NCBI GenBank assembly: GCA_000092065.1
Contig: CP000591.1
DNA from: Ostreococcus lucimarinus
Taxonomy: Eukaryota
Direction: 5' to 3' (one strand)
Length of the DNA: 64,000 bases
Shown here: one piece after another, positions 1,337-30,792 of the stretch
How the letters are laid out: each line of letters begins with the position of its first letter
Numbering within the stretch: position 1 is the stretch's first letter
Position numbers and translations under genes: made by a program
The notes under the pieces: model-generated
The model's database searches: none
Seen by the model: only the letters and a program-made list of their open reading frames with translations
What the model was told of the DNA's origin: nothing

Positions 1337-2779
1337 TTAGACGTCGAATTGACGCTCGAGGACGTCGCGGTTGAGTTCTAGGATGACTTTGGCTAAGGCC
1401 TCGTCCTCTCGCAGGGCGAGACGGGCGGCTTCGACCGGGTCGCCGGATTCCCACGCGAAATCGGGCGTGGGAGCGTTGATGGAGTAGGAAGAACTGTCGT
1501 CGATCTCGACCGCCGCGAGTTTGGTCGTGGCTTTCCAGTTTTCGAACGCCACGAGGGCGTCGAGGGCGTCGCGGCGGTAGCCGCTGTGATAGAGCAAAAC
1601 GCCCATATCGCGTTGCTCGTATCCGACGTTTTCATCGAGCTCGGCGAGTCTTTCGGTGACTAACAGGGCCATTTGAAGGTCCCCAAAAGGTCTACCGGTG
1701 GGCTGGATGATTCCCACCACTCCCGCGGCGGTGTTCATGCGATCATCCTTGCCGTACGCCGCGGCTTCGACGGCGAGAAGGAATCCCGAGTCTCGCGAAT
1801 CGTCCCATTCCCACGGCCAAAATGCGCGCTTAAGCGCCATGAGCTGCATGCGAACGACCATGTCTGGCGTGCAAACCACCGATCCATCGGGCGCGGCGTC
1901 GCTGGCTTTGATTCCCTGCGGTCGGCGCGGCGTTGGGTCCGCCCCGCGTCGCACGCGAAGCAACACCTTGATGTCTCCGCACGCGTCGAGTTCGCCTTTG
2001 GCTTTCAACCTCTCCAAAAATCCGATGTAAATCGCCGCCAAGGTGGCGGGAATACCAACCTTTTGCGCTATAACGTTATGAAAATAAGTCCTGTACGGCG
2101 AAAACGCCTCCCTCCACCCAGTCGGTGTGCGATATTGCTGCTCCTCGAACAGGTATCGCTCGACGGCTTCAATCATCTTGTCCGCGTCCGCCTTATCTTC
2201 CGCGCTCATGTACGACAAATCTCTCTGCACGAACTCATTCACGAGCTTATCCATGCGCTTCGTATACGCCTCCCTCGGCAGACACACGCTCGTGCGGCCT
2301 TGCACCGCGTCATCCTCCACCGCCAGGTGCATCGACGCCGTCACCGCGTCGCCCTTCGCGCCGCGTCGATACTCCTCCACCAACCCCATCCTCGCCTCCC
2401 TCGCGAACGGTTCCCACGTCTCTTTCGGCGATTGCGGTTTTCCAAACGCATACTGCCTCCCCGCGCTCTTCGCCAGCGTCTCCGCTTCCTTCTCCGCGTA
2501 GTTCTTCGCGATCGACTCCGCGTCCCCCGTGCGTCGTCCCGTGCGTCCCAGAAACGTCCGCCCCTCCTCCTCCCCGTCCTCGCTCGTCGCGCCGTCCGTT
2601 CGCGCGTTCGCGCGTCCCCGTCGTCGTCTGAACCCCCCCTCGCGCTCGAATCGCGCCGCGCGCGCCGTCGCGCCGCGCCCGCGCGCGCGCGTCGCCGTCG
2701 TCGTCGTCGTGGATAGCGCGCGCCGCCCTCGTCCTCTCGTCGCCGTCGTCGCCGTCGTCGCGGTCGTCGTCGTCGTCAT
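1337..2779 (-). CDS. conserved hypothetical protein (480 aa); tentatively a transglutaminase-like/TPR (UPF0162-like) fold
   Basis: Long ORF with an ATG at 2779. Poly-Thr/Arg N-terminus, then a globular region (YRTPTGW, NVIAQKVGIPATLAAIYIGFLERL). I could not assign the family from memory. Confidence 0.5.
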   Translation of the reverse strand: MTTTTTATTATTATRGRGRRALSTTTTTATRARGRGATARAARFEREGGFRRRRGRANARTDGATSEDGEEEGRTFLGRTGRRTGDAESIAKNYAEKEAETLAKSAGRQYAFGKPQSPKETWEPFAREARMGLVEEYRRGAKGDAVTASMHLAVEDDAVQGRTSVCLPREAYTKRMDKLVNEFVQRDLSYMSAEDKADADKMIEAVERYLFEEQQYRTPTGWREAFSPYRTYFHNVIAQKVGIPATLAAIYIGFLERLKAKGELDACGDIKVLLRVRRGADPTPRRPQGIKASDAAPDGSVVCTPDMVVRMQLMALKRAFWPWEWDDSRDSGFLLAVEAAAYGKDDRMNTAAGVVGIIQPTGRPFGDLQMALLVTERLAELDENVGYEQRDMGVLLYHSGYRRDALDALVAFENWKATTKLAAVEIDDSSSYSINAPTPDFAWESGDPVEAARLALREDEALAKVILELNRDVLERQFDV

Positions 2780-3133: not shown

Positions 3134-5488
3134 ATGCGCGACGACGGCGCGAGAGACGACGACGACGACGACGACGACGCGACGGCGCGCGCGGACGACG
3201 CGGTGACGGCGACGACGACGACGCCGTCGCGAGAATCGTCGAGCGATGGACGAACGACGGCGAACGTCGAGGGGGGGCGCGCGACGAGCGAGGGCGCGAC
3301 GGCGCGAGCGCTGATGCTGGCGTCGACGAATAGCTTTCGCGCGCCGCGAGCGGGGACGAAGGCGGCGCTGGAGGTGCACGTGTCGACGTGGAACGTGGGG
3401 AATAAGGCGCCGCGAGCGGATGCGGCGAGCGGGTGGTTGAGGGACGCGCGGAGGAGCGATATCGTCGCCGTCGGGGCGCAGGAGGCGAGTTACGTGAAGA
3501 CGAGAAAGACGATAAAACCCGTCGCGGTGAGCGCGGCGTGCGGGGACGAGGCGAATTTCAAATCAAGATTTCGGAAGGGATTTTTCAAATCGACGAAGTG
3601 GACGCGAGTGGGCATGGTCGCGGGCGGCGCGTTCGCGGGAGGGGTCATGGCCGCGCCCGTGGCGCCGATGGGAGTGATGTGCGGTATGTTCACGGGCTGG
3701 TTCGCGAGCAAGAGGCTGGTGCAAGAGATCAAGGTGCGCATACATTGGTTTGATTTCTTGCACTCGGCGTTGGGCCACGAATTCGAGCTCTTGCAGACGC
3801 AAATATTACTGCAAATGCGGCTGGCGGTGTTTGTGAAGAAAGAGCTCGTCCCGAGAATTCGCAGCGTCAAGGTTGGCTCGAAAGCCACCGGGCTCGGAAA
3901 TCTGGTCGGGAACAAGGGCGGGTTGTTGGTGCACATTGAACTCGAAAACGGGGAAACCATCGCCTTCTTGTCGTGTCATCTCGCCGCGCACGAACAACCA
4001 AAGTATTTGGAAGCGCGCAACCACATGGTGCATGAGATCTTAGAAGGGACCTGGATAGATTGCGTGGAAAAGCCCAAGTGCGCGTTGCCCGTGGTAACCG
4101 ACGTGAACTCGGCGTTGTTTGACGCCGGATCAGAAATGATAAACAAGATGAAGGGGACGTCGAGACAGGTGTATGAAAGGACTTCGGACGCGTTCCAGGG
4201 CGCCACGGGGGCCAGACTCGCAATTGGTTCCGGTATGGCTCCGCGAAAGAATCAAGCACCTGAGTTATTGGACGTCGCCACCCACGTCTTCTTCTTTGGG
4301 GATCTCAACTACCGCCTCGATCCCGGGAAAGTCGTCGGGAACGAGTGGGATACTCACTGGGATAAGACGGCGCCGGAAATGACGTCTACAAAATTAGCGA
4401 ACAAATACGACGTCGATAAAGTTCCCCTGAGCAAGTTCCCCGCGGCGAGGCCGGTGGCGCAACCCGGCATGATTGAAGAAGAAAGCGACGACGAAATCAC
4501 CGAGTCGTCGCCATTCCAGATCGGGCGCACGGCCGTAATCGAGTCCGTGGGCGCTCAGGAATTCGATCAATTGGTCAAGGCAGACCAGTTGATCAAATCC
4601 ATGAAGGAAGGAAAGGTGTTTGCAAACTTTCATGAAATGCCCCTCAAGTTTTTCCCGACATTTAAGCGCGCGTCGAACAACTTGAAGGATGGGAAAGGCA
4701 AGAAAGCACCCGCGCAAGAACAATCTGTCGCGGAGCCGGGTTCGGCAGAATATTACAATGAAAAGCGCGTGCCTTCCTGGTGTGATCGCGTGCTTGTACA
4801 CTCGTTAACTGGCGCCAAAGACTCTTGCTCGCCTCTCGAGTACGGGGCGCGTCACGACGTCACGACGTCAGATCACGCACCGGTTTACGCGCGCTTTCGC
4901 GTGCGTCTCCGCGATCTTCCTCCATTGAAAGCACTTCCACGAGCCAAGTTGACGCTCACGAATTTGAGCGTCACTCGTAACACCATCGAGGACGATTTCC
5001 GGGGTTCGAGCGTTTACGTGCACTTGTTCGTTCCGCACACGCGCACAGTCGTTCCAGAGGCTAGAGAAGTGAGCTCGGGGCACGTCGCTCGAGACGAATC
5101 GCAGCCAAAAACGATTGGGAAGTATACTTTCTCTGGGGATGTTCTTCCCTCCTGCATCGTCGGTTACGACGCCGCCGACGAAGTCACCTTTGCTGAGCAA
5201 GAAAAGGCGGCGGCGCGCTTCGCGCTGCTCACCACGGAGGAACGAATCGCGTTGAAGGAAAACGAAGATGCCGAAAAGTCTGAAGAATTACCCACTCCCG
5301 TTGGCATGGACGCGTACGGTAAGTTTGTGGGCATTATCACTCTCGTCGACAGTCGATACGGCGACAAACTAGGAACGTGCACGGTGCTCCTCCCCTCCAA
5401 GGGCTCATCCTCGTTCGACGTCCCCCTCCTGTTGCGTTCTGCAAACGTCGGCCGAATCAAGGGATCGTGGGAGCTCTCTAGTATTTAA
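3134..5488 (+). CDS. inositol polyphosphate 5-phosphatase (endonuclease/exonuclease/phosphatase fold)
   Basis: Motifs STWNVGNK, DIVAVGAQE, FFFGDLNYRLD and PSWCDRVLV (5-phosphatase catalytic signatures). The first ATG in frame is at 3134. The track ORF began upstream at a non-ATG codon. Confidence 0.8.
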   Translation: MRDDGARDDDDDDDDATARADDAVTATTTTPSRESSSDGRTTANVEGGRATSEGATARALMLASTNSFRAPRAGTKAALEVHVSTWNVGNKAPRADAASGWLRDARRSDIVAVGAQEASYVKTRKTIKPVAVSAACGDEANFKSRFRKGFFKSTKWTRVGMVAGGAFAGGVMAAPVAPMGVMCGMFTGWFASKRLVQEIKVRIHWFDFLHSALGHEFELLQTQILLQMRLAVFVKKELVPRIRSVKVGSKATGLGNLVGNKGGLLVHIELENGETIAFLSCHLAAHEQPKYLEARNHMVHEILEGTWIDCVEKPKCALPVVTDVNSALFDAGSEMINKMKGTSRQVYERTSDAFQGATGARLAIGSGMAPRKNQAPELLDVATHVFFFGDLNYRLDPGKVVGNEWDTHWDKTAPEMTSTKLANKYDVDKVPLSKFPAARPVAQPGMIEEESDDEITESSPFQIGRTAVIESVGAQEFDQLVKADQLIKSMKEGKVFANFHEMPLKFFPTFKRASNNLKDGKGKKAPAQEQSVAEPGSAEYYNEKRVPSWCDRVLVHSLTGAKDSCSPLEYGARHDVTTSDHAPVYARFRVRLRDLPPLKALPRAKLTLTNLSVTRNTIEDDFRGSSVYVHLFVPHTRTVVPEAREVSSGHVARDESQPKTIGKYTFSGDVLPSCIVGYDAADEVTFAEQEKAAARFALLTTEERIALKENEDAEKSEELPTPVGMDAYGKFVGIITLVDSRYGDKLGTCTVLLPSKGSSSFDVPLLLRSANVGRIKGSWELSSI

Positions 5489-12630: not shown

Positions 12631-12789
12631 TTTTTGCTCGGACGCGCGCGATGCGGGCGCGAGGGATTTCTTTCTATGTGCGTGTAATGTTTTCAACAAG
12701 TTTTCGTCTAAAATTTCAACTGTTTCTCGTCGGCGCGCGCGGCTATGTTGATTGTCGTGTCGTTAGCGTGGAATCACCTCGTCGTCGCA
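12631..12789. terminator. AT-rich convergent 3' intergenic island with a TGTAA-like element
   Basis: Local GC drops sharply (gtgtaatgttttcaacaagttttcgtctaaaatttcaactg). Both flanking genes end here. Confidence 0.4.
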
Positions 12790-13605: not shown

Positions 13606-13849
13606 TTCGCCGTCGATTCCAAAACCAAACGCCGCGCTCTCGAACGAATCGAGCGCCGCTCGCGCGGTCGTCGCGCCCGTTCCGACGCGTCGCCGCGCGC
13701 GCAGAACGCGCGGTGACGCGCGTTACGTTCGCCGACCGCGTCTCGCGCGGCACCGGGCGACGTCGGCGTCGTGGACTGACGCGCGCGTCTCGACCGGGAC
13801 GCCGCGTTTGAATCGGCGCCGTCGTTCCCCTCTGCGATCGAGCGACGCG

Positions 13850-14641
13850 TCAGAGCAATATCGAGACGCGAGTGAGCACGGCAACACCGATGGCGAGCAA
13901 AATGAAGGCGAACACACACGACCTGTGCGCGCAAAAGGCGTGAACGATGGCGTACGCGCACGCCAACGGAGCGCACGCGTACAGGCAGCACCGCTCGCCG
14001 CGCGAGACGTCGCCGATTCGCTCGGCGCCGATTTCCAAGTCGCGCGCGCGCGCGTCGTCGTCTCGCGCGTCGTCGTCCCTCGCGCTCGCGCTCGACGACG
14101 ACGACACGGTTCGAGCGCGATACTTCTCGCGACGTAATCGTCGCTCCTTTCGCAGCTCGGCGCGCGTCGGCACGTTCGTCATTCGCTCGAGACAAATTTC
14201 GCAGTCGGCCGACTTGCGCGGCGCGCGCAGCACCCACGCCTCTAGACACTCGGCGTCGACGTGCACGACTCCCGAAACGCACGCGCACCCCAGTCGTACC
14301 GCGCGCGCATCGCGTATATCTTCGCGCGTGACGTCGAACAAACAGACCCGACACGCACCGACGAAGTCTTCTTCTTCTTCTTCTTCGTCGTTCGCGTCGT
14401 TCGCGTCGTCCCCGTCGTCCCGAACTCCATCGCCCGCATCGTCCCCATCCCGCGCGCTCGCGCCCATCGCCCACCCCCCGGTCTCGCGTACGACCACGAC
14501 CACGTCGTCGCCGCTTCCGCGATCCCTCCGCGCCGCTTCCGCGTCGTCGTCGTCTCCCGTCTCGCGTCCCTCGCGTCCGTCTCGCGCCCGCGTCGCCGCC
14601 GCGCGCGTCCTCGTCGTCACCGCGTCGTCCTCGGCGCCCAT
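13850..14641 (-). CDS. RING-CH (MARCH-type, C4HC3) membrane E3 ligase-like protein
   Basis: CRVCLFD...GCACVSGVVHVDAECLEAW...CEICLERM, followed by two hydrophobic helices. ATG at 14641. Confidence 0.7.
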   Translation of the reverse strand: MGAEDDAVTTRTRAAATRARDGREGRETGDDDDAEAARRDRGSGDDVVVVVRETGGWAMGASARDGDDAGDGVRDDGDDANDANDEEEEEEDFVGACRVCLFDVTREDIRDARAVRLGCACVSGVVHVDAECLEAWVLRAPRKSADCEICLERMTNVPTRAELRKERRLRREKYRARTVSSSSSASARDDDARDDDARARDLEIGAERIGDVSRGERCCLYACAPLACAYAIVHAFCAHRSCVFAFILLAIGVAVLTRVSILL

Positions 14642-14805
14642 CGCGCGCGTCGTCTCCCCGCTCGCGTCGGGTCCTCGCGTCGTCGACCGGTCGTTCGACC
14701 GCGCGTCGCTCGTCGTCGCGATGTGACGCGCGCGCCGTCGTCGTCGGACGCGCGTCGCGCGCGAAAACGGCGGTTCGAATCCCCGAGCCTCGGCGCGTCG
14801 GTATC

Positions 14806-14833
14806 AACCCTAAACCCTAAACCCTAAACCCTA
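14806..14833. promoter_or_regulatory. interstitial plant-type telomere repeat / telo-box cluster (AACCCTA)x4
   Basis: aaccctaaaccctaaaccctaaacccta is visible. It sits in the 259-bp divergent region between the RING-CH ATG (14641) and the DEAD-box ATG (14900). Confidence 0.85.
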
Positions 14834-14899
14834 CTCGCGAGGCGACAACCGCCGCCGCCGCGCGCGCGACGGCACTCCGACGCGCGCGGCGCCGTCGCG

Positions 14900-15223
14900 A
14901 TGGCGCTCGACGACGACGACGACGGCGCGTTCGTCCTGAACCTCGCCGACGACGGCGACGCCGGCGTCAGGGCGCGCAAGGGCAACCCGCGGCGACGCAC
15001 GGTGGCGCGCGCGTCCAAGAAAGGATGGCGCGGCGGCGGCGACGACGGCGCGACGCGCGCGCGCGAGGGACGGACGAGAGAAAAGCGCGCGCGAGACGAA
15101 GGCGAATGGAATCGCGGACGGGCGCGGACGAAGCGGGAGACGACGCGGGACGGCGCGAGGGGAGGGCGAGGGGCGGGACGCGGGACGCGCGCGCGGGACG
15201 CGGGAGAAGGACCGAAGACGCGG

Positions 15224-15255
<32 letters not shown>

Positions 15256-17233
15256 GGGGGATGCGTTCGAAGTCGTCGGCGCGCGCGATGGTGGGGAAGA
15301 CGACGGGGAGGCAGAGCGCGCGCTGACGTTCGATCCGCGAGATTGGGCGAGTTTGATGAAGCGCGCGGCGGGGACGTCGACGCGCGGCGAAGACGACGGC
15401 GAGGGCGAAAGCGAGAGCGATGGTGAGAGGGACGGCGCGGAGAGACATCGCGCGCGGGTTTTCGGGAAGGAACCGACGTCGTTCGAAGAGTGCGGGCTTC
15501 CGGCGTCGATGGTGAAGCACTTGATGGAGAATGTGGGGTTCGGCGCGCCGACGGCGGTGCAGGCGAAGACGATTCCGCGATTGTTGGCGGGACGGGACGT
15601 TTTAGTGCGCGCGGAGACGGGGTCGGGGAAGACGCTGAGTTACATCGCGCCGTTGTATAGTAAAATTGGAGGGATCACGCCGCGAGTGACTCGAGAGGAA
15701 GGCACGCGAGGGTTGGTGCTCGTGCCGACGAGAGAGTTGGCGACGCAAGTCGAGGACACGGCGCGGCGCGTCGGACGGCCGTTTCATTGGGTGGTCACGA
15801 GCTCGATCATGGGAGGCGAAAATCGGGCGAAAGAGAAAGCGCGATTGCGCAAAGGCGTTTCGCTGTTGATCGCCACTCCGGGTCGGCTTTTGGACCACTT
15901 GCGCATGACGGAGTCGTTCAACGTCGACAACTTGCGATGGCTCGTCCTCGACGAAGCCGATCGACTATTAGATTTGGGATTTGAAGAGGATTTGAACGCG
16001 ATTCTCAACGAAATCGGTCGACGCACCGAGGGCGCGAGTCTGTGCACGGCGCTGTTGTCCGCCACGCTCACGCCCGGGACGGCGCGTTTGGCCGAGCGAA
16101 TGACGGATCCGGTGACCATCGTCGTCGAGCCGGAAAAGGACGATTTGGAAATCGTCGGCGCCGACGGGAGCGATGACGAGGAAGGAGGCACGATGGACGT
16201 CGATGGATTAAAGCGCATGGCGAAAATAATGGCTGGTGGCGAGCGCGTGCGCATGCCCGAAGGGTTGAATCACACCGTGGTCGAAGTTTCCATGAAGGCG
16301 CGACTGCCCGCGTTGGCCGGTTTACTCGCTGGTTGGATGCAAGGATCAATTTCCAAAGCGATCGTGTTCTTTTCCTCGTGCGAATCCGTGGAGTATCACT
16401 ACAAAACCTTGCGCTGGCTCGCCGCGGGAGGCAAAGGAAAGGTGAAAGACGACGATGATTCGATTCAAGGGCCGTACGAAATTTTCCGCCTCCACGGCTT
16501 GCTCAGCCAGGGCGACCGCGCGAGCGTGTTTAGGAACTTTGCCAACACCAAAGCGGGCGTGTTACTGTGCACCGACGTCGGTGCGCGCGGCTTAGACTTC
16601 GTCGGCGTCGGAGCAACGGTGCAAGTCGACGCTCCGACGGACGCGACGACGTACATTCACCGCGTCGGGCGCACCGCCCGCCTCGGATCTGAGGGCGAAG
16701 CCGTGCTCTTTTTACAACCCAAGGAGCGGGAATTCGCAGAAGTGCTCACCGAAAAAGGCGTAAACTTCGCCAACGGTTCCGTCGTCGCGATGTTAGACGT
16801 CTTAGAAGACTCCAAAGACGCGAGCGAACGAGACAAATCGATGTTCAAGAGCATGCCCCATCTCCATCCCGCGTCCCAGCGCATGCTGAAGAAGCTCGTC
16901 GCCAAAGTCGCGAGCGACAAGCAGTACGACGTCTTGGCCAAGGACGCGTTCCGCGCCCACGTACGCGCCTACGCCACCTTCCCTTCCGCATTCAAGCACA
17001 TCTTTCACGTCAAGCGTCTCCATCTCGGTCACGTCGCCGCCGCCTTCGGCTTAAAAGACGCCCCTCAACTCATCGGCGCGAGCGCCACGAAAGCCGCGCT
17101 CAAGGCGCAAAAAGACGCCGCGAGGAAGAAATCCAACGTCGACGCCAGGCGCAAGAAGGATCAGCGCCAGGCCAAGCGCGCGAAAAAGCTCGCACCGCGC
17201 GCCGCGAGTTCTCTGCCCATCGGCGCCGCCTAG
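14900..17233 (+). CDS. DEAD-box ATP-dependent RNA helicase (DDX31/Dbp7-like, ribosome biogenesis)
   Basis: Q-motif region, ETGSGKT, PTRELA, DEAD (VLDEADRLLDLGFE), SAT, HRVGRTAR. Acidic N-terminus. ATG at 14900. Confidence 0.85.
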
Positions 17234-17370
17234 CGACGCGATCGCCGCGTCATGTAATCATCCGCCGCGCGCGCGCCGCGCGCTGACTGTACCGCGCAGA
17301 CCTCGACCGACGCGTCCACCGCGCTCGACCGCGCTCGACCGTCACACGCGCGCGCGCGCACGAGCCCGAC

Positions 17371-18468
17371 ATGCGCGCGCACGCGCTCTCGCTCTCGCTC
17401 TCTCTCTCTCGCGCGCTCGATGGACGCCGCGCGCGCGCCCCGCGTCGCGCGCGCGTCGACGATTCGACGGCGCGATCGACCTCGACCTCGCGGGGACGCA
17501 TTCGCGCCGTTGGCGGCGACGCGGGACGCGGCGCGCGCGCGATCGAGACGCGAACGAGCGCGCGAAAGACGCGAGACTGCGCGATGGAGGCGTCGAGCGC
17601 GTCGAGCGAACCGCCGAGCGAGTGCGAAGCGAACGGAATCGGGTGCGACTTGGAATTCATGAAGATGGTGCGGGACGACGCGGACAGACCGACGACTGGG
17701 TACGCGCTGCAGGCGACGATATTGGGGTCGTGCGTCCTGATGGGATTGATACTGTACATCTCGTTGGATTTAGGGTCGACGACGTTCGTGAATAACGCGT
17801 GGCAAAAGGTGGTGAACGCGACGGCGAAGAGCGGGTTCACGGCGGCGTTCGCGCTCATCTTCGTGAGCGAGCTCGGGGACAAGACTTTTTTCATCGCGGC
17901 GTTGCTAGCGATGCGCTTAGGAAGGTTGCGAGTGTTGGTAGGGGCGACGAGCGCGTTGGCGGCGATGACGGTGATATCGGTGGCGATCGGGAGGGCTTTT
18001 CAGCGATTACCGAGCTCGTTGATGACGACGCTGCCGGTGGGAGAGTACGCCGCGGTGGCGATGCTCTTGTTTTTTGGGATAAAGACGTTGAGAGACGCGC
18101 TGAGCATGGATCCGAGCGGGGCGACGCCCGAGGACCACGGAGAGTTAGCAGAAGCCACAGAGGTGGTGTGTAAGTCTACGAGCGCGCAAAAGCGCTCGCC
18201 AGGCTTGGCGGCTTTGATCGAGACTTTTTCGTTGATTTTCATCGCCGAGTGGGGCGACAGGAGCATGCTCGCCACCGTCGCGCTCGGCGCGGCACAAAAT
18301 CCCGTCGGCGTCGCTTTCGGCGCGTCGCTCGGACATTTTATCGCCACCTCGATCGCCGTCGTCGGCGGATCGTTACTATCGAAGAGAATCAGTGAACGCA
18401 CAGTCGGCATCGTCGGCGGTTCCCTCTTTCTCGTGTTCGCGTTGTTCACCGCCTTGGGCGTTTTTTAG
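17371..18468 (+). CDS. GDT1: UPF0016/GDT1 family cation (Mn2+/Ca2+) transporter (TMEM165/PAM71-like)
   Basis: Two E-x-G-D-(KR)-(TS) motifs (ELGDKTFF, EWGDRSML) in antiparallel TM repeats. ATG at 17371; an alternative in-frame ATG lies at 17584. Confidence 0.8.
   Translation: MRAHALSLSLSLSRALDGRRARAPRRARVDDSTARSTSTSRGRIRAVGGDAGRGARAIETRTSARKTRDCAMEASSASSEPPSECEANGIGCDLEFMKMVRDDADRPTTGYALQATILGSCVLMGLILYISLDLGSTTFVNNAWQKVVNATAKSGFTAAFALIFVSELGDKTFFIAALLAMRLGRLRVLVGATSALAAMTVISVAIGRAFQRLPSSLMTTLPVGEYAAVAMLLFFGIKTLRDALSMDPSGATPEDHGELAEATEVVCKSTSAQKRSPGLAALIETFSLIFIAEWGDRSMLATVALGAAQNPVGVAFGASLGHFIATSIAVVGGSLLSKRISERTVGIVGGSLFLVFALFTALGVF
17383..17408. repeat. (CT)n / CTCTCG microsatellite in the 5' end of the GDT1 ORF
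   Basis: The run ctctcgctctcgctctctctctctc is visible. It would encode LSLSLSLS if translated. Confidence 0.85.
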
Positions 18469-18546
18469 TTAGACCGATCTCGAGTTATTAAATAAATAAA
18501 TTACGAAAGACGATGAATGTGTGTATTACGTATTACGTCGACGCAG
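18469..18546. terminator. AT-rich convergent 3' island
   Basis: ttattaaataaataaattacgaaagacgatgaatgtgtgtattacg lies between the GDT1 and rhomboid stops. Confidence 0.4.
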
Positions 18547-19497
18547 TCACGGTGGAACCATGCGCGTGAGAAAGAAGATCAATAAAACACCCGCGAACGC
18601 GCCGCCGAGGTGCGCGACGTGATTGACGTTGCCCGCGCCGACGCCGCTCCCCGCCGCGGCGACCATTTTCGCCTCACTCAGAAATCTATCGACCACGAAT
18701 TGCCCGAGAATCACCACTTCTAACAATCTTCGCCAGTTCCAGCTCAATTTCACCAACACACTCACCGCGAACAGCCCGAACACAGCGCCCGAGGCGCCCA
18801 AACTCACCGTCGCCGCGCCGCCGATGCCGAGCACGCCTCCGACGCTCTTAGGCAACAACAACCACGACGCCACGTTCGCCCCGATCCCGGTGACGAGATA
18901 CGACATCCACACCCCGAAAGCTCCCTCCTCTTCCTCCACCAGCTTCCCGAAGATGTACAAAAAAAAGATGTTCGAACTCAAGTGCGCCCAGTTCGCGTGA
19001 CAAAACGTCGACGTCGCGAACTGCCACCACGTCGGTTTCGCGTGATTCAAATACAGCGTCTTCACGAACGCCATGTGCGCCCAGTGATCGCACGCGAACA
19101 ACGCAAAGTTTATGAACAGCAGCGCGAACACGCCGTCGTACGCCGCCGTCCGTCGCGACGGTCCGGCGCCGCGCAGCGCGCCCTTGGCCGCCCGCGCCGC
19201 CCCTCGCGCCGCGTCCCCGGCGTATTTCGCCATCAGCGCTTCCGCGTCCGGCAGCCCCGGGACGTCTGGGAACGAATCGTTTCGTCCCCCTTTCGCCTCG
19301 ACGCGCGCGTTCGCCCTCGCGCGCGCCGTTTCGCGCGTCCGAGGCGCGGCACTTTTGCGCACCTCGACGCGCTTGTCCCCCTCGACGCGTTGAAACGCCC
19401 TCGCGACGCTCTCGCGCGCCCTCGCGCGCGCGCGCGACGTCGACGGCGTCGCGACGCAGCCCCTCGACGCGCTCGCGCGCGCGCGCGCGATCGCCAT
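18547..19497 (-). CDS. rhomboid-family intramembrane serine protease
   Basis: GASGAVFGL (GxSG catalytic Ser) and AHLGGAFAG (catalytic His) within six TM helices. ATG at 19497. Confidence 0.75.
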   Translation of the reverse strand: MAIARARASASRGCVATPSTSRARARARESVARAFQRVEGDKRVEVRKSAAPRTRETARARANARVEAKGGRNDSFPDVPGLPDAEALMAKYAGDAARGAARAAKGALRGAGPSRRTAAYDGVFALLFINFALFACDHWAHMAFVKTLYLNHAKPTWWQFATSTFCHANWAHLSSNIFFLYIFGKLVEEEEGAFGVWMSYLVTGIGANVASWLLLPKSVGGVLGIGGAATVSLGASGAVFGLFAVSVLVKLSWNWRRLLEVVILGQFVVDRFLSEAKMVAAAGSGVGAGNVNHVAHLGGAFAGVLLIFFLTRMVPP

Positions 19498-19591
19498 GGC
19501 GCGCGCGCGACGAACAGTGCCGAAAACACGAATCCAAAAGCGTCCCGAAAAGCGTTAAAGCGTTCGATCCGGAATGGACGCGTCAGAACGA

Positions 19592-19660
19592 CGCGCGACG
19601 TCGGGCGGCGATCGATCGCGCGCGCGACGTCGCGCGCGCGGCGATCGATCGCGCGCGCGC
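19592..19660. promoter_or_regulatory. about 33-bp tandem repeat x2 containing the palindromes GACGTC and CGATCGATCG, in a bidirectional promoter
   Basis: Two copies of gcgcgacgtcg and two of ggcgatcgatcgcgcgcg alternate. They lie between the rhomboid ATG (19497) and the ferrochelatase ATG (19838). Confidence 0.6.
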
Positions 19661-19837
19661 GGACTCGGCGTCGCCACCGCGCGATCGCGCGCGTCGCCGC
19701 CGCGAGAGGTCGCGATCGAGGCGCGAAAACGCCGCCGACGTCGACGGAAAGCGGCGGCCGAGCCCTGATCGGATTGCTCGGAGAATCCGCGCCGTCGCGC
19801 GCGACCGCGGGCGCGCGAGGACGCGAGCGAACGAGAG

Positions 19838-23493: not shown

Positions 23494-24678
23494 ATGCGCG
23501 CGTTGCTCACCTTGATATGCGCACTAGCGCTCGCGCTATGCAACAAGCTCGTCGCCGCGAGTCCTGTGCGCAAACCGTACATCGTCTCGTACGATGGTGC
23601 CGTCGATGAAATCTGTGACGCCCTGGAGTCGACGACGAAGCATATGAATTTTCATTGTCTGTGGCATTTGAAGATAAAATGTCGTCGGCGAATGCGATTC
23701 GCTCGTTTATTTGCCGTGTTTGCCGACGACAAGGAAGTCAACGCACTTCGCACGTGCGTTCCCGCGCTAGATTTCGAAGAAGACGTTGAAGTGTTTTCAC
23801 AAGGCGTGACAACCTGGTCCAGAGACCGTCTGAACGGTAGAGACGGGCTTGATGGTAAGTTGCTTCCTCGCGATCCCCCTGAAGATGGCTATGGGAGCAT
23901 CGTGCACGTTTATCTGCTTGACACGGGTGTGAGAAGGACGCACGTGGAATTCAAAGATCAAGCGTTTGGGCGCGGCGTCGATTTAGTCGACGATGACGCC
24001 GAACCTGATGACTGCGATGGTCACGGTAGTCACGTGGCTTCGACCATCAATCAAATCGCGTATAGCGGCAAGACAGTTCTCCACTCTGTGAGAGTTCTCG
24101 ACTGTAACGGAAATGGTGAGCTCTCGGGGCTGATTGAGGGACTTGAATGGGTGCTCGGTGTGGCGACGCCGTCCGAGCCAGCCGTGGTCAGTTTAGCGCT
24201 CGGAGTGCGAAATGGAATTTGGTCACGCGCACTCGAACGCGTCGTCCAAACGCTCACTGGACGTGGAGTATTCATCGTTTGCGCCGCTGGTAACCAAAAA
24301 GGAGACGCATGCACGATTTCGCCTGGAAACGTCGCGGAGACGCTGACTGTCGCAGCCAGCGATCAAGCAGACGCGCCGTACGCCTATGGAAACTCTGGAA
24401 GGTGCGTTGATTTATTCGCGCCCGGCGTGCAAATTCTCGGTGCATGCGGTGGAAGCACTGCGTGTGAGCATCCAAGCGACACGGCATATGCATTTCAAAG
24501 CGGTACGAGTATGGCGGTCGCGCACGCCGTCGGCGCAGCGACGCGCCTTCTTATGTTTTCCCCACGCATGAGCCCTGAAAATTTGAAGAAGCATCTCACA
24601 TCAACTGCGTCGCGCGACAAAATTCGAGGTGGGTCATTACTCCCAGGAACTCCGAATCTACTGTTGTACGTGAAATAA
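23494..24678 (+). CDS. secreted subtilisin-like serine protease (peptidase S8, proteinase K-like)
   Basis: Signal peptide MRALLTLICALALALC. Catalytic triad contexts: Asp (HVYLLDTGV), His (DGHGSHVAST) and Ser (GTSMAVAHAVGA). ATG at 23494. Confidence 0.85.
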   Translation: MRALLTLICALALALCNKLVAASPVRKPYIVSYDGAVDEICDALESTTKHMNFHCLWHLKIKCRRRMRFARLFAVFADDKEVNALRTCVPALDFEEDVEVFSQGVTTWSRDRLNGRDGLDGKLLPRDPPEDGYGSIVHVYLLDTGVRRTHVEFKDQAFGRGVDLVDDDAEPDDCDGHGSHVASTINQIAYSGKTVLHSVRVLDCNGNGELSGLIEGLEWVLGVATPSEPAVVSLALGVRNGIWSRALERVVQTLTGRGVFIVCAAGNQKGDACTISPGNVAETLTVAASDQADAPYAYGNSGRCVDLFAPGVQILGACGGSTACEHPSDTAYAFQSGTSMAVAHAVGAATRLLMFSPRMSPENLKKHLTSTASRDKIRGGSLLPGTPNLLLYVK

Positions 24679-24789
24679 ATCATTATCACATTTGCTCCGC
24701 CGCTAAGCGCACGGCATCGATCGGGATTACGTGAAATAAATCATTATCACATTTGTTCCGCCGCTAAGCGCACGGCATCGATCGGGATT
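24668..24789. repeat. 61-bp tandem duplication (2 copies, 1 mismatch) spanning the stop codons of both convergent protease genes
   Basis: acgtgaaataaatcattatcacatttg[c/t]tccgccgctaagcgcacggcatcgatcgggatt appears twice. Unit 1 contains the subtilisin TAA. Unit 2 contains the Deg stop, which is TGA on the minus strand. Confidence 0.9.
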
Positions 24790-25523
24790 GCGAAGTTCAC
24801 GCCTTGCGGATCTCGCTTTTGCGATCCCGCGTACGCGACGACGTTCAATCCAATCACCCGTCCAGCACTATCGCACAACGCGCCCCCACTCGTAAACTCC
24901 GTGACTTGCGCGTCCGTCTGAATCAAACCTTTCAACCCAACCCCGTTCCTGCTCGGAATTTTCCTCTTCAATCCATTAATAGTTCCAGAGCTCAGCACGG
25001 CCGCGCCGTCCTCTTCAAATCCCAACGAGAACGCGCTCTGCCCGACGCGCAAATTATCGCTCGTCCCGATCTTCGCCGCCACGGGCGCGTCCGCACCGAA
25101 ACTGCCAATAGGTACCTTCAAAAACCCAATATCGGTGCTTCTGTTGACGAAATACGATGCGTCTTTATCCAATGCCGCCGCGGCGCCGCTCGCGAGCATC
25201 ACGACCAACTTTTCGTTTTCATTCCCCTTCACCACGCAGTGCGCGTTCGTCGCGATGTAGGCGTACGCATCGTCGATGTACCACACCACACCACTCCCGC
25301 GGCCGCTAATCTCGCCATTGGGCGCGACAACGGCGACGCGCGCGACGCTTTTCGACGTCTCTGCGAACACTCTGGTCGCCGACGTTTCGTCGACGAGCGA
25401 CGCGCGCGCGGGGCGAACGAGGCAGGACGCGAGCAAGGGCGCGATGAACGTATCACGTCGACGTAATGTGGTGCGCGGCGCGGTCGAAGGCGTCGGGGAG
25501 GCGACGGCGACGATTCGGGACAT
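24747..25523 (-). CDS. Deg/HtrA-like trypsin-fold serine protease (S1C), no obvious PDZ
   Basis: TNAHCV (His), a GDSGG-like region (EFTSGGALCDSAGRVIGLNV), and N-terminal targeting-like sequence. First ATG at 25523; the track start is a TTG. Confidence 0.65.
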   Translation of the reverse strand: MSRIVAVASPTPSTAPRTTLRRRDTFIAPLLASCLVRPARASLVDETSATRVFAETSKSVARVAVVAPNGEISGRGSGVVWYIDDAYAYIATNAHCVVKGNENEKLVVMLASGAAAALDKDASYFVNRSTDIGFLKVPIGSFGADAPVAAKIGTSDNLRVGQSAFSLGFEEDGAAVLSSGTINGLKRKIPSRNGVGLKGLIQTDAQVTEFTSGGALCDSAGRVIGLNVVAYAGSQKRDPQGVNFAIPIDAVRLAAEQM

Positions 25524-29133: not shown

Positions 29134-30792
29134 TCAAGGTCGATACCGCCCGCCGTTGTGTGCCTCCTTCGCTCGGCCTTCCAAAAAAAGACTGGTGGAA
29201 GTCAAAACGTTGTTAACCGTGGCGTACGTTTTCCTCCTGCGATTGCTGTCGACGCGCAAGGCGTTGTAAGATGGCTCCGGACGAGGCATGTCGTCATCAC
29301 TCGACGAAGCTTCAGATGCTGGAGACTGTAACGACGAGTGTGTTCGACGACGTAGCCTTCGCCGTGGGACGTTCTCTACGTCTAACATTCGATTATGCGA
29401 CATCGATGGCTCGACACCGTCGTGATCTGAATCACGGTATCGTGCTGAACACTGAGAGCGAGCGAATAGCACGCAAATGGCGAGCAAGACAACCAAACCG
29501 AGTGCAACAGAACCAGCGATACTTGGTGAAACGCCGAGCCACTTGCGAGCGCGCTTTACGATGTTTCCATCGCCAGAGTCCGTATCATTGAGAGGCGGCG
29601 TCGGCGGAGGCGGGGTTGGAGCCGCGGATGCGCACACACCGAACGCCATGAGTTTGCGTCCCGAAGCCGGTGGAAACGAAAACGGCGAAGCTTGATTTGG
29701 CGGCGGACTCGGCGGCGGACTCGGCGGCGGACTGGGTGGTGGACTGGGTGGCGGACTGGGCGGCGGACTGGGCGGCGGACTGGGCGGCGGACTCGGCGGC
29801 GGACTGGGCGGCGGACTGGGCGGCGGACTGGGTGGTGGACTGGGTGGCGGACTGGGCGGCGGACTGGGCGGCGGACTCGGCGGCGGACTCGGCGGAGGAT
29901 TTGGTGGCGGACTCGGCGGAGGATTTGGTGGCGGACTCGGCGGCGGACTCGGCGACGGACTCGGCGGTGGATTTGGTGGTGGACTCGGCGGTGCATTTGG
30001 TGGCGGACTCGGCGGTGGATTTGGTGGCGGACTCGGCGGTGGATTTGGTGGTGGACTCGGCGGTGAATTTGGTGGCGGACTCGGTGGCGGACTCGGCGGC
30101 GGACTCGGCGGCGGACTCGGCGGCGGATTCGGCGGCGGACTTGTTGGCGACGCCGAAGGCGTTGGTGGAAATTGCGGTAGTGGCGGATTTGGCGGCGGAT
30201 TTGGCGGCGGACTCGGCGGTGGATTTGGTGGTGGACTTGGCGGCGGACTCGGCGGCGGACTCGGCGGCGGACTCGGCGGTGGATTTGGTGGTGGACTCGG
30301 CGGTGGATTTGGTGGCGGACTCGGCGGTGGATTCGATGGTGGACTGGGCGGTGGATTTGGTGGCGGACTCGGCGGTGGATTTGGTGGTGGACTCGGCGGC
30401 GGTGGATTCGGCGGTGGATTTGGTGGCGACGCCGAAGGCGTTGGTGGAAATTGCGGTAGTGGCGGATTCGGCGGCGGACTTGGCGGTGGATTCGGCGGCG
30501 GACTGGGCGGCGGACTTGTCGGTGGACTCGGCGGCGGATTCGGCGGCGGATTCGGCGGTGGATTCGGCAGTGCCACCGCCGTAGGCGGCGGCGGCGCATT
30601 TGTAAGAACACCATCTGACGCACAAATTCCACTATCGCATTGATAGTCCGCAAAACACGGCGCTCCGGCTTCCAAAGCGCGCGCGCTGACGAATGAGAAG
30701 ACGTAAACCGTCGCGACGACGCCGAGACGAAGCCTCCATAAATTCCGCGCACTCCACCGCCGCGACCGTCGTCGACGATCGGCCCTTATCAT
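29134..30792 (-). CDS. proline-rich (SPPPNPPP)n extensin/HRGP-like type I membrane glycoprotein
   Basis: Signal-peptide-like LGVVATVYVFSFVSARA, a Cys-containing head (CFADYQCDSGICASDG), and about 300 aa of 8-aa SPPPNPPP repeats. A single TM (VALGLVVLLAICVLF) and a cytoplasmic tail complete it. First ATG at 30792. Confidence 0.65.
   Translation of the reverse strand: MIRADRRRRSRRWSARNLWRLRLGVVATVYVFSFVSARALEAGAPCFADYQCDSGICASDGVLTNAPPPPTAVALPNPPPNPPPNPPPSPPTSPPPSPPPNPPPSPPPNPPLPQFPPTPSASPPNPPPNPPPPSPPPNPPPSPPPNPPPSPPSNPPPSPPPNPPPSPPPNPPPSPPPSPPPSPPPSPPPNPPPSPPPNPPPNPPLPQFPPTPSASPTSPPPNPPPSPPPSPPPSPPPSPPPNSPPSPPPNPPPSPPPNPPPSPPPNAPPSPPPNPPPSPSPSPPPSPPPNPPPSPPPNPPPSPPPSPPPSPPPSPPPSPPPSPPPSPPPSPPPSPPPSPPPSPPPSPPPSPPPSPPPSPPPSPPPNQASPFSFPPASGRKLMAFGVCASAAPTPPPPTPPLNDTDSGDGNIVKRARKWLGVSPSIAGSVALGLVVLLAICVLFARSQCSARYRDSDHDGVEPSMSHNRMLDVENVPRRRLRRRTHSSLQSPASEASSSDDDMPRPEPSYNALRVDSNRRRKTYATVNNVLTSTSLFLEGRAKEAHNGGRYRP
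29690..30585. repeat. about 900-bp coding minisatellite of 24-bp period (ggcggcggactcggcggcggactggg-like units)
   Basis: The periodicity is directly visible. All six frames stay open across it, and the track shows three alternative long ORFs. Confidence 0.9.

Follow-up and report, generated by a model that had tools for sequence, protein, structure and literature searches.

A four-unit telomere-type repeat in the spacer between a RINGv-like gene and a DDX31/Dbp7-type helicase gene of Ostreococcus lucimarinus: a candidate short interstitial telomeric sequence shared with one sister species

The stretch of Ostreococcus lucimarinus DNA analysed here (64 kb, referred to below as the window) holds 42 mostly intronless genes at 62.5% GC; its phosphoglucose isomerase (PGI) shares 90% identity with the enzyme of Ostreococcus tauri, as suits a species of Ostreococcus other than O. 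tauri. The locus of interest consists of two divergently transcribed genes and the spacer between their start codons (Table 1). The rightward gene encodes a helicase with Pfam domains DEAD, Helicase_C and CTE_SPB4, the last being an SPB4-type C-terminal extension; members of its cluster and its homologues carry the names DDX31/DBP7 or plant RH17 in their sources, and the DDX31/Dbp7 type given in a preliminary description of this DNA is thereby borne out. The start of the helicase is backed by an N-terminus conserved in the orthologues (GFVLNL...GNPRRRTVAR..KKGWRGGG). The exact protein was matched on marine metagenome contigs only, and the closest named relative, from Micromonas commoda, shares 62% identity. 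The leftward gene had been described as a RING-CH neighbour; its ORF does diverge from position 14641, but the RING-CH assignment is marginal, the RINGv match (E=3e-4) scoring 21.2 bits against a cut-off of 21.6 bits. The spacer is as tiny and as divergent as described, measuring 258 bp and not 259 bp, and is presumed from its geometry to act as a bidirectional promoter.

Table 1. Features of the helicase locus (positions in the window) and neighbourhoods of the Mamiellales-like telomere-type arrays found in metagenomes.
Feature	Position	Strand	Basis or remarks
Divergent gene, 263 aa, marginal RING-variant (RING-CH) finger	13850-14641	-	Pfam
Spacer between divergent ATGs, 258 bp	14642-14899	.	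ORF geometry
Block AAAACGGCGGTTCGAATCC	14764-14782	+	Contains tRNA B-box-like GGTTCGAATCC; partly kept in sister species as AAAACGTCGGTTCGGGTC
Telomere-type array (AACCCTA)x4	14806-14833	+	Direct read, pattern search, Tandem Repeats Finder
Fourth unit and junction with unique DNA	14827-14838	+	Hypervariable among haplotypes; also diverged in sister species (TTGTTAGGGTT)
DDX31/Dbp7/RH17-type DEAD-box RNA helicase, 777 aa, intronless	14900-17233	+	Pfam, named homologues
Mamiellales-like array			Divergent spacer between molybdopterin (Mo-) oxidoreductase gene and cytochrome b5-domain gene
Mamiellales-like array			25 nt upstream of NUDIX gene
Mamiellales-like array			Between ORF of no assigned function and FUN14 gene
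Mamiellales-like array			5 nt past stop codon of mRNA cap methyltransferase
Mamiellales-like array			Overlaps stop codon of Fe-hydrogenase-like gene converging on WD40 gene
Mamiellales-like array, four units	L157:1591-1618		Few nt from probable 3' splice site (CCCTCCTAG, then exon) of minus-strand gene
Mamiellales-like arrays			Three loci without identifiable neighbours

The array was read directly and recovered both by pattern search and by Tandem Repeats Finder (period 7, 4.0 copies, 100% matches), which confirms the four tandem AACCCTA units and the interstitial plant-type telomeric array of the preliminary description. It represents the C-strand of TTTAGGG telomere DNA and extends over 28 bp in a single orientation, sense with respect to the helicase gene; three AAACCCTA telo-box octamers overlap within it. 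The gap to the helicase ATG is 66 nt, so the array does lie close upstream of the gene, at one nucleotide less than the 67 nt first reported. The pattern search found no AACCCTA heptamer in the 64-kb window other than these four; chance alone would supply ~1 single heptamer over that length, and a perfect 28-mer is not expected. When one mismatch was allowed, AAACCCTA was not commoner elsewhere in the window than in shuffles.

Neither site II, TEF or TATA motifs nor a tRNA or Rfam family was found in the spacer. The block that precedes the array, ~25-40 nt 5' of the repeat, includes a perfect tRNA B-box-like element. This element, counted at 30 nt upstream, prompted consideration of a tRNA or SINE remnant, a candidate that was rejected; ARAGORN reported no tRNA in the window. 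An Rfam search at E<=1 returned three sub-threshold chance matches only, none of them covering the array. A telomerase RNA template was considered and set aside: such templates are roughly 1.5 units long, the array has four full units, and no RNA family was matched.

Other tandem repeats were observed in the window. A perfect 19-bp x2 duplication (TGGGGTTTATCTGTTATTC) occupies positions 2960-2999, in an AT-richer island of the divergent spacer between the genes at 1337-2779 (-) and 3134-5488 (+); a 12-bp unit, GGCGGCGGACTC, is repeated ~72 times at 29699-30568 as a long coding minisatellite within the ORF 29556-30614 (-). A 61-bp x2 duplication with 98% matches (24667-24789) runs from the end of the intergenic DNA after a peptidase S8 gene ~40 bp into the 3' end of a trypsin-like protease ORF (24747-25523, -), and falls in a lower-GC stretch of the window (22-30 kb, GC about 0.56-0.58).

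The telomere unit of all Mamiellophyceae is CCCTAAA/TTTAGGG (PMC11106453; also PMC5455958). The array is genuine telomere-type sequence for this organism because its unit is identical to that of the group; the check on the true telomere repeat that had been advised thus came out in favour of the telomeric identification (PMC11106453), and a different repeat in the species can be discounted. POT1 of O. lucimarinus binds GGGTTTAGGGT (PMC2794166). The species also has telobox Myb proteins (PMC4700174), which probably bind the array. Canonical TRB proteins are reported from Klebsormidiophyceae onward and as streptophyte-specific (bioRxiv 10.1101/2022.11.23.517682), and the telo-box regulon of ribosomal-protein genes is reported as land-plant specific (PMC3212954).

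Within the species the array is present in all seven population haplotypes compared (the window and L001-L006), and its first three units are unchanged in every one. Five allelic forms of the fourth unit and the adjoining junction occur among the seven (AACCCTAC, AACCCT-, AAAACC, AAAACCC and AAAA); the rest of the alignment, ~300 nt, differs by just two SNPs and one 3-bp indel. Three of the haplotypes (L002, L005 and L006) retain only three C/G tracts, as does the closest sister species, L007. That species has ~2.7 copies, CCCCTAAACCCTAAACCCTA and then TTGTTAGGGTT, equally placed with respect to the ATG; the distance from the first CCC to the ATG is 92 and 93 nt in the two species, and one inverted partial unit, TTAGGGTT, follows the array in L007.

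The sister species are close, with 91% overall DNA identity over 9.7 kb, 93.5% protein identity between their helicases and 91% identity at four-fold sites of the helicase gene. The spacer is 68% identical by full-length blastn alignment, a figure that replaces the 63% of an earlier MAFFT alignment and is in line with several other spacers of this species pair (69-71%). Along the contig, spacers 12631-12789 and 13606-13849 are 91-95% identical to L007 and four other spacers (within 14642-19837) only 68-71%, alongside the 91% of the helicase four-fold sites. The longest perfect run between the two helicase spacers is a 19-nt core, CCCTAAACCCTAAACCCTA, which belongs to the array. Its conservation is suggestive at most and statistically weak: the two species are too close for it to be decisive, and 0.06-0.7 runs of at least 19 nt would be expected by chance in the spacer, depending on how gaps are counted (own calculation).

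Beyond this pair the array disappears. No telomere motif lies upstream of the orthologous helicase in seven Ostreococcus-like lineages (L008, L009/L010, L011, L192, L193, L196 and L197), whose helicases are 68-80% identical to that of the window, nor in two Micromonas-like lineages (L194 and L195; helicase 55% identical). The array-less Ostreococcus-like relatives share with the window the order RING, RINGv, helicase, GDT1, rhomboid, ferrochelatase wherever their contigs reach far enough. The outgroup spacers measure 95-212 bp and do not align with that of the window; the boundaries of an insertion, or an empty site, are not definable because these spacers are too diverged. Because the array is absent from nine other lineages and gene order is unchanged in the Ostreococcus-like ones, the sequence comparison identifies it as a gain in the ancestor of the two sister species, neither an ancient element nor a fusion point. 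The "conserved regulatory use" originally proposed is not supported for a motif that was seen in this species and one sister only and is missing at the orthologue in those nine lineages.

The motif was surveyed in ~74 kb of the species, namely the 64-kb window and 10 kb beyond its end (L198), with Pfam-annotated genes. Neither the window nor the other loci include a ribosomal-protein gene. No AACCCTA was found in the spacers of ~49 other genes over this length; those without it include RNA-processing and translation genes, namely a Bmt2 rRNA methyltransferase, an RNase PH exosome subunit, a class II aminoacyl-tRNA synthetase (aaRS), an eRF1/Pelota-like gene and a YbeY fusion. The telo box occurs in ~10% of Arabidopsis genes (PMC3022908, PMC2576244), and at such a frequency zero in ~49 genes would have a probability of 0.9^49, about 0.006 (P<0.01); over-representation at ribosome-biogenesis and translation promoters was not found within the ~74 kb sample. 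In plants, the telo boxes of ribosome-biogenesis genes come together with site II and TEF motifs (PMC3022908); TGGGCY/RGCCCA, even as the shorter GCCCA/TGGGC, and the TEF box are all absent from the 258-bp spacer and from that of L007. The array fails the defining tests of a plant telo-box module, namely partner motifs, gene-class enrichment in ~74 kb and orthologue conservation. Of the intergenic bases of the window, 89% sit in divergent or tandem, promoter-containing spacers, and a neutral insert would for this reason almost always look as if it were "in a promoter". A literature search found no paper on telo boxes or interstitial telomere repeats in Mamiellophyceae.

Short arrays of the same unit do occur at other loci. 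Metagenomes were scanned for CCCTAAACCCTAAACCCTA flanked by CGCG, a pattern that selects at least 2.7 copies with CGCG flanks, and at least 120 loci were returned; among the matches listed, 10 are Mamiellales-like by tetranucleotide profile (r>=0.7 to the window), corresponding to ~8 distinct loci. Each carries ~3-4 copies, and none of the 10 is the window locus. In this small sample of ~8 distinct loci no gene class stands out among the neighbours, and some sites lie 3' of genes (Table 1). The array of L157 would form part of a polypyrimidine tract.

Arrays outside the Mamiellales-like set were also observed. In many freshwater metagenome contigs that are not Mamiellales-like (L118, L116, L165, L108, L103 and others; GC 0.50-0.57), as many as a dozen short telomere-type arrays fall within 1-5 kb; these contigs may represent subtelomeres or dispersed repeats from other eukaryotes. 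A scan of IMG/VR viral contigs returned phage-like or low-GC viral matches, not algal ones. In phage-like contigs (L016:7363, L027:944, L029:6666, L039:2954; GC 0.53-0.62) (CCCTAAA) x2.7-4 lies 4-20 nt before an ORF ATG, and this position just 5' of viral start codons is unexpected for a eukaryotic telomere-type repeat; a further group of viral contigs (L040, L017, L056, L066, L038, L043 and L012; GC 0.47-0.49) has two to four separate 2-3-unit telomere-type repeats each, with inter-repeat spacings that recur among some of them.

With modest confidence, the array is considered to be a short interstitial telomeric sequence (short ITS) that arose where a break in open promoter DNA was repaired and has persisted without a dedicated, conserved regulatory role. 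It has features of such a sequence, with few exact units in one orientation within unique DNA, a restricted clade, and flanks that are collinear in Ostreococcus-like relatives without it; set against its relatives, it looks like a young, lineage-restricted insertion. In the ancestor that this species shares with its closest sister, a break or a free 3' end would have arisen in the DNA of the open, nucleosome-poor RINGv/helicase spacer; telomerase would have extended the free end by a few TTTAGGG units before repair. The insert would then have persisted with its first three units stable and its distal unit mutating fast, and the hypervariable distal unit fits a mutationally unstable repeat edge. 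Excess mutation near telomere repeats has been reported in mutation-accumulation lines of Mamiellophyceae (PMC5455958), although those repeats are subtelomeric and serve as an analogy only. The array would lie in a promoter since almost all non-coding DNA here is promoter-bearing, and not through membership of a ribosome-biogenesis regulon; binding by telobox Myb proteins could incidentally alter transcription or nucleosome positioning of both flanking genes. Telomerase acting at promoter breaks has been proposed as the route by which plant telo boxes spread (Gaspin et al. 2010, PMC3022908). At this locus the telomerase origin is itself inferred, the outgroup spacers being too diverged to give boundaries, and the comparison set of other Mamiellales arrays is small (~8 distinct loci).

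Several observations count against this reading and favour an exapted cis-regulatory element, whatever the origin of the array. It would then be a telo-box-like site through which telobox Myb proteins activate, time or insulate the transcription of the helicase gene, the RINGv gene or both, comparable within this lineage to plant telo boxes and yeast Rap1/Tbf1 sites; this is regarded as possible, if clearly the less probable account. The perfect 19-nt core in a spacer of 68% identity and the at least three units kept in all seven haplotypes are compatible with purifying selection; the sense orientation, 66-93 nt before the ATG of a nucleolar, ribosome-biogenesis helicase, is as expected of a plant telo box; telobox Myb proteins able to read the array exist in O. 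lucimarinus (PMC4700174); and rRNA-processing genes are marked by telo boxes in plants (PMC3022908). However, the sister species are too close, at 91% DNA identity, for a core of this length to weigh heavily against the 0.06-0.7 chance runs, and the array is missing from nine other orthologous promoters. The other promoters in ~74 kb, those of ribosome-biogenesis (RiBi) and translation genes included, are free of the motif, the site II and TEF partners are lacking, and the arrays elsewhere in Mamiellales lie beside unrelated genes, some on the 3' side; these findings also oppose the conserved use that had been suggested. The regulon is moreover reported as land-plant specific (PMC3212954) and TRB proper as streptophyte-specific (10.1101/2022.11.23.517682). 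Telobox Myb binding is plausible, and expression of the helicase or RINGv gene may therefore still be affected locally. The fuller version of this idea, that Ostreococcus, a chlorophyte outside the lineage with documented TRB proteins and telo-box regulon, has recruited the telomere repeat, read by telobox Myb proteins, as a working promoter element of the nucleolar helicase, is considered doubtful. It would be an independent and recent birth of the control of ribosome-synthesis genes by telomere proteins that plants and yeasts display, still at a one-gene stage and with repeat number varying among natural alleles.

The remaining alternatives carry much less weight. A G-quadruplex formed by the bottom strand, (TTTAGGG)x4, with an i-motif on the top strand, could modulate the promoter, and the window allele has exactly the four GGG tracts, separated by 4-nt loops, that are the minimum for an intramolecular G4; this capacity is not conserved because three of the seven haplotypes and the sister species are three-tract, and a role of this kind is very unlikely. 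An ordinary slippage microsatellite that resembles the telomere unit by chance is highly improbable: the window is rich in short tandem repeats (298 TRF rows) and the edge of the array varies in a slippage-like way, but rotations and complements of the telomere unit make up 14 of the 16,384 heptamers (own calculation), an AT-containing unit is atypical of a CG-rich genome whose repeats are of CG/CGN type, and short arrays of this very unit recur at other Mamiellales-like loci. The chromosome-fusion scar that had been offered as an alternative, in which two telomeres would have fused by their ends and left this trace, could appeal to the interstitial position of the repeat and to the inverted partial unit in L007; it is ruled out for practical purposes by gene order that is identical on both sides in array-less relatives, and by an array that spans 28 bp in one orientation, lacking any subtelomeric sequence or head-to-head arrangement, inside a 258-bp spacer.

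Set beside known systems, the array would work, and probably arose, much as short ITSs and plant telo boxes do. It resembles the plant telo box (AAACCCTA, in the 5' regions of translation-apparatus genes; PMC3022908) in that its sequence is identical and is the organism's own telomere unit, in its sense orientation close upstream of a coding region with an rRNA-processing helicase downstream, and in that the telomerase-mediated route suggested for plants would hold for it too. In RiBi genes the plant element sits at -50 to +50 around the TSS or in the 5' UTR; the array is placed relative to the ATG only (66-93 nt), which is compatible with this but not informative. It differs from the plant element in having four tandem units and not one or two, in lacking site II or TEF, in being absent from nearby RiBi and translation genes and from orthologues beyond one sister species, and in its host, a chlorophyte, for which there is no report of the regulon and which reportedly lacks canonical TRBs.

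For the short ITS known from vertebrates and plants, telomerase-mediated repair of double-strand breaks is the reported source (Nergadze et al., among others). The array shares with them few exact units in one orientation, collinear unique DNA, a narrow clade and outgroups without the repeat; unlike them it lies in a 258-bp divergent promoter of a genome with almost no neutral DNA, and the outgroup spacers are too diverged to mark its boundaries. Yeast Rap1/Tbf1 sites in ribosomal-protein and snoRNA promoters are sites of telomere proteins put to new use, a parallel already drawn for plants (PMC3022908). As in yeast, a telomere-like sequence stands upstream of a ribosome-synthesis gene and a telomere-binding reader of Myb type is plausible; no regulon-wide distribution of the array was seen, however, in ~74 kb.

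Whichever reading holds, the locus gives no demonstration of an ancient, conserved telo-box regulon in green algae. If the array is an insertion scar, it is a clean, small case of telomere units landing in promoter DNA of a genome with almost no neutral sequence; its two-species age bracket and hypervariable edge would help to date such events, and it would support the model in which telomerase acting at promoter breaks gave rise to plant telo boxes. An array that affects expression would illustrate the de novo birth of a telo-box-type element outside land plants; with natural three- and four-unit alleles at hand and a transformation system for O. tauri, an effect on expression is directly testable.
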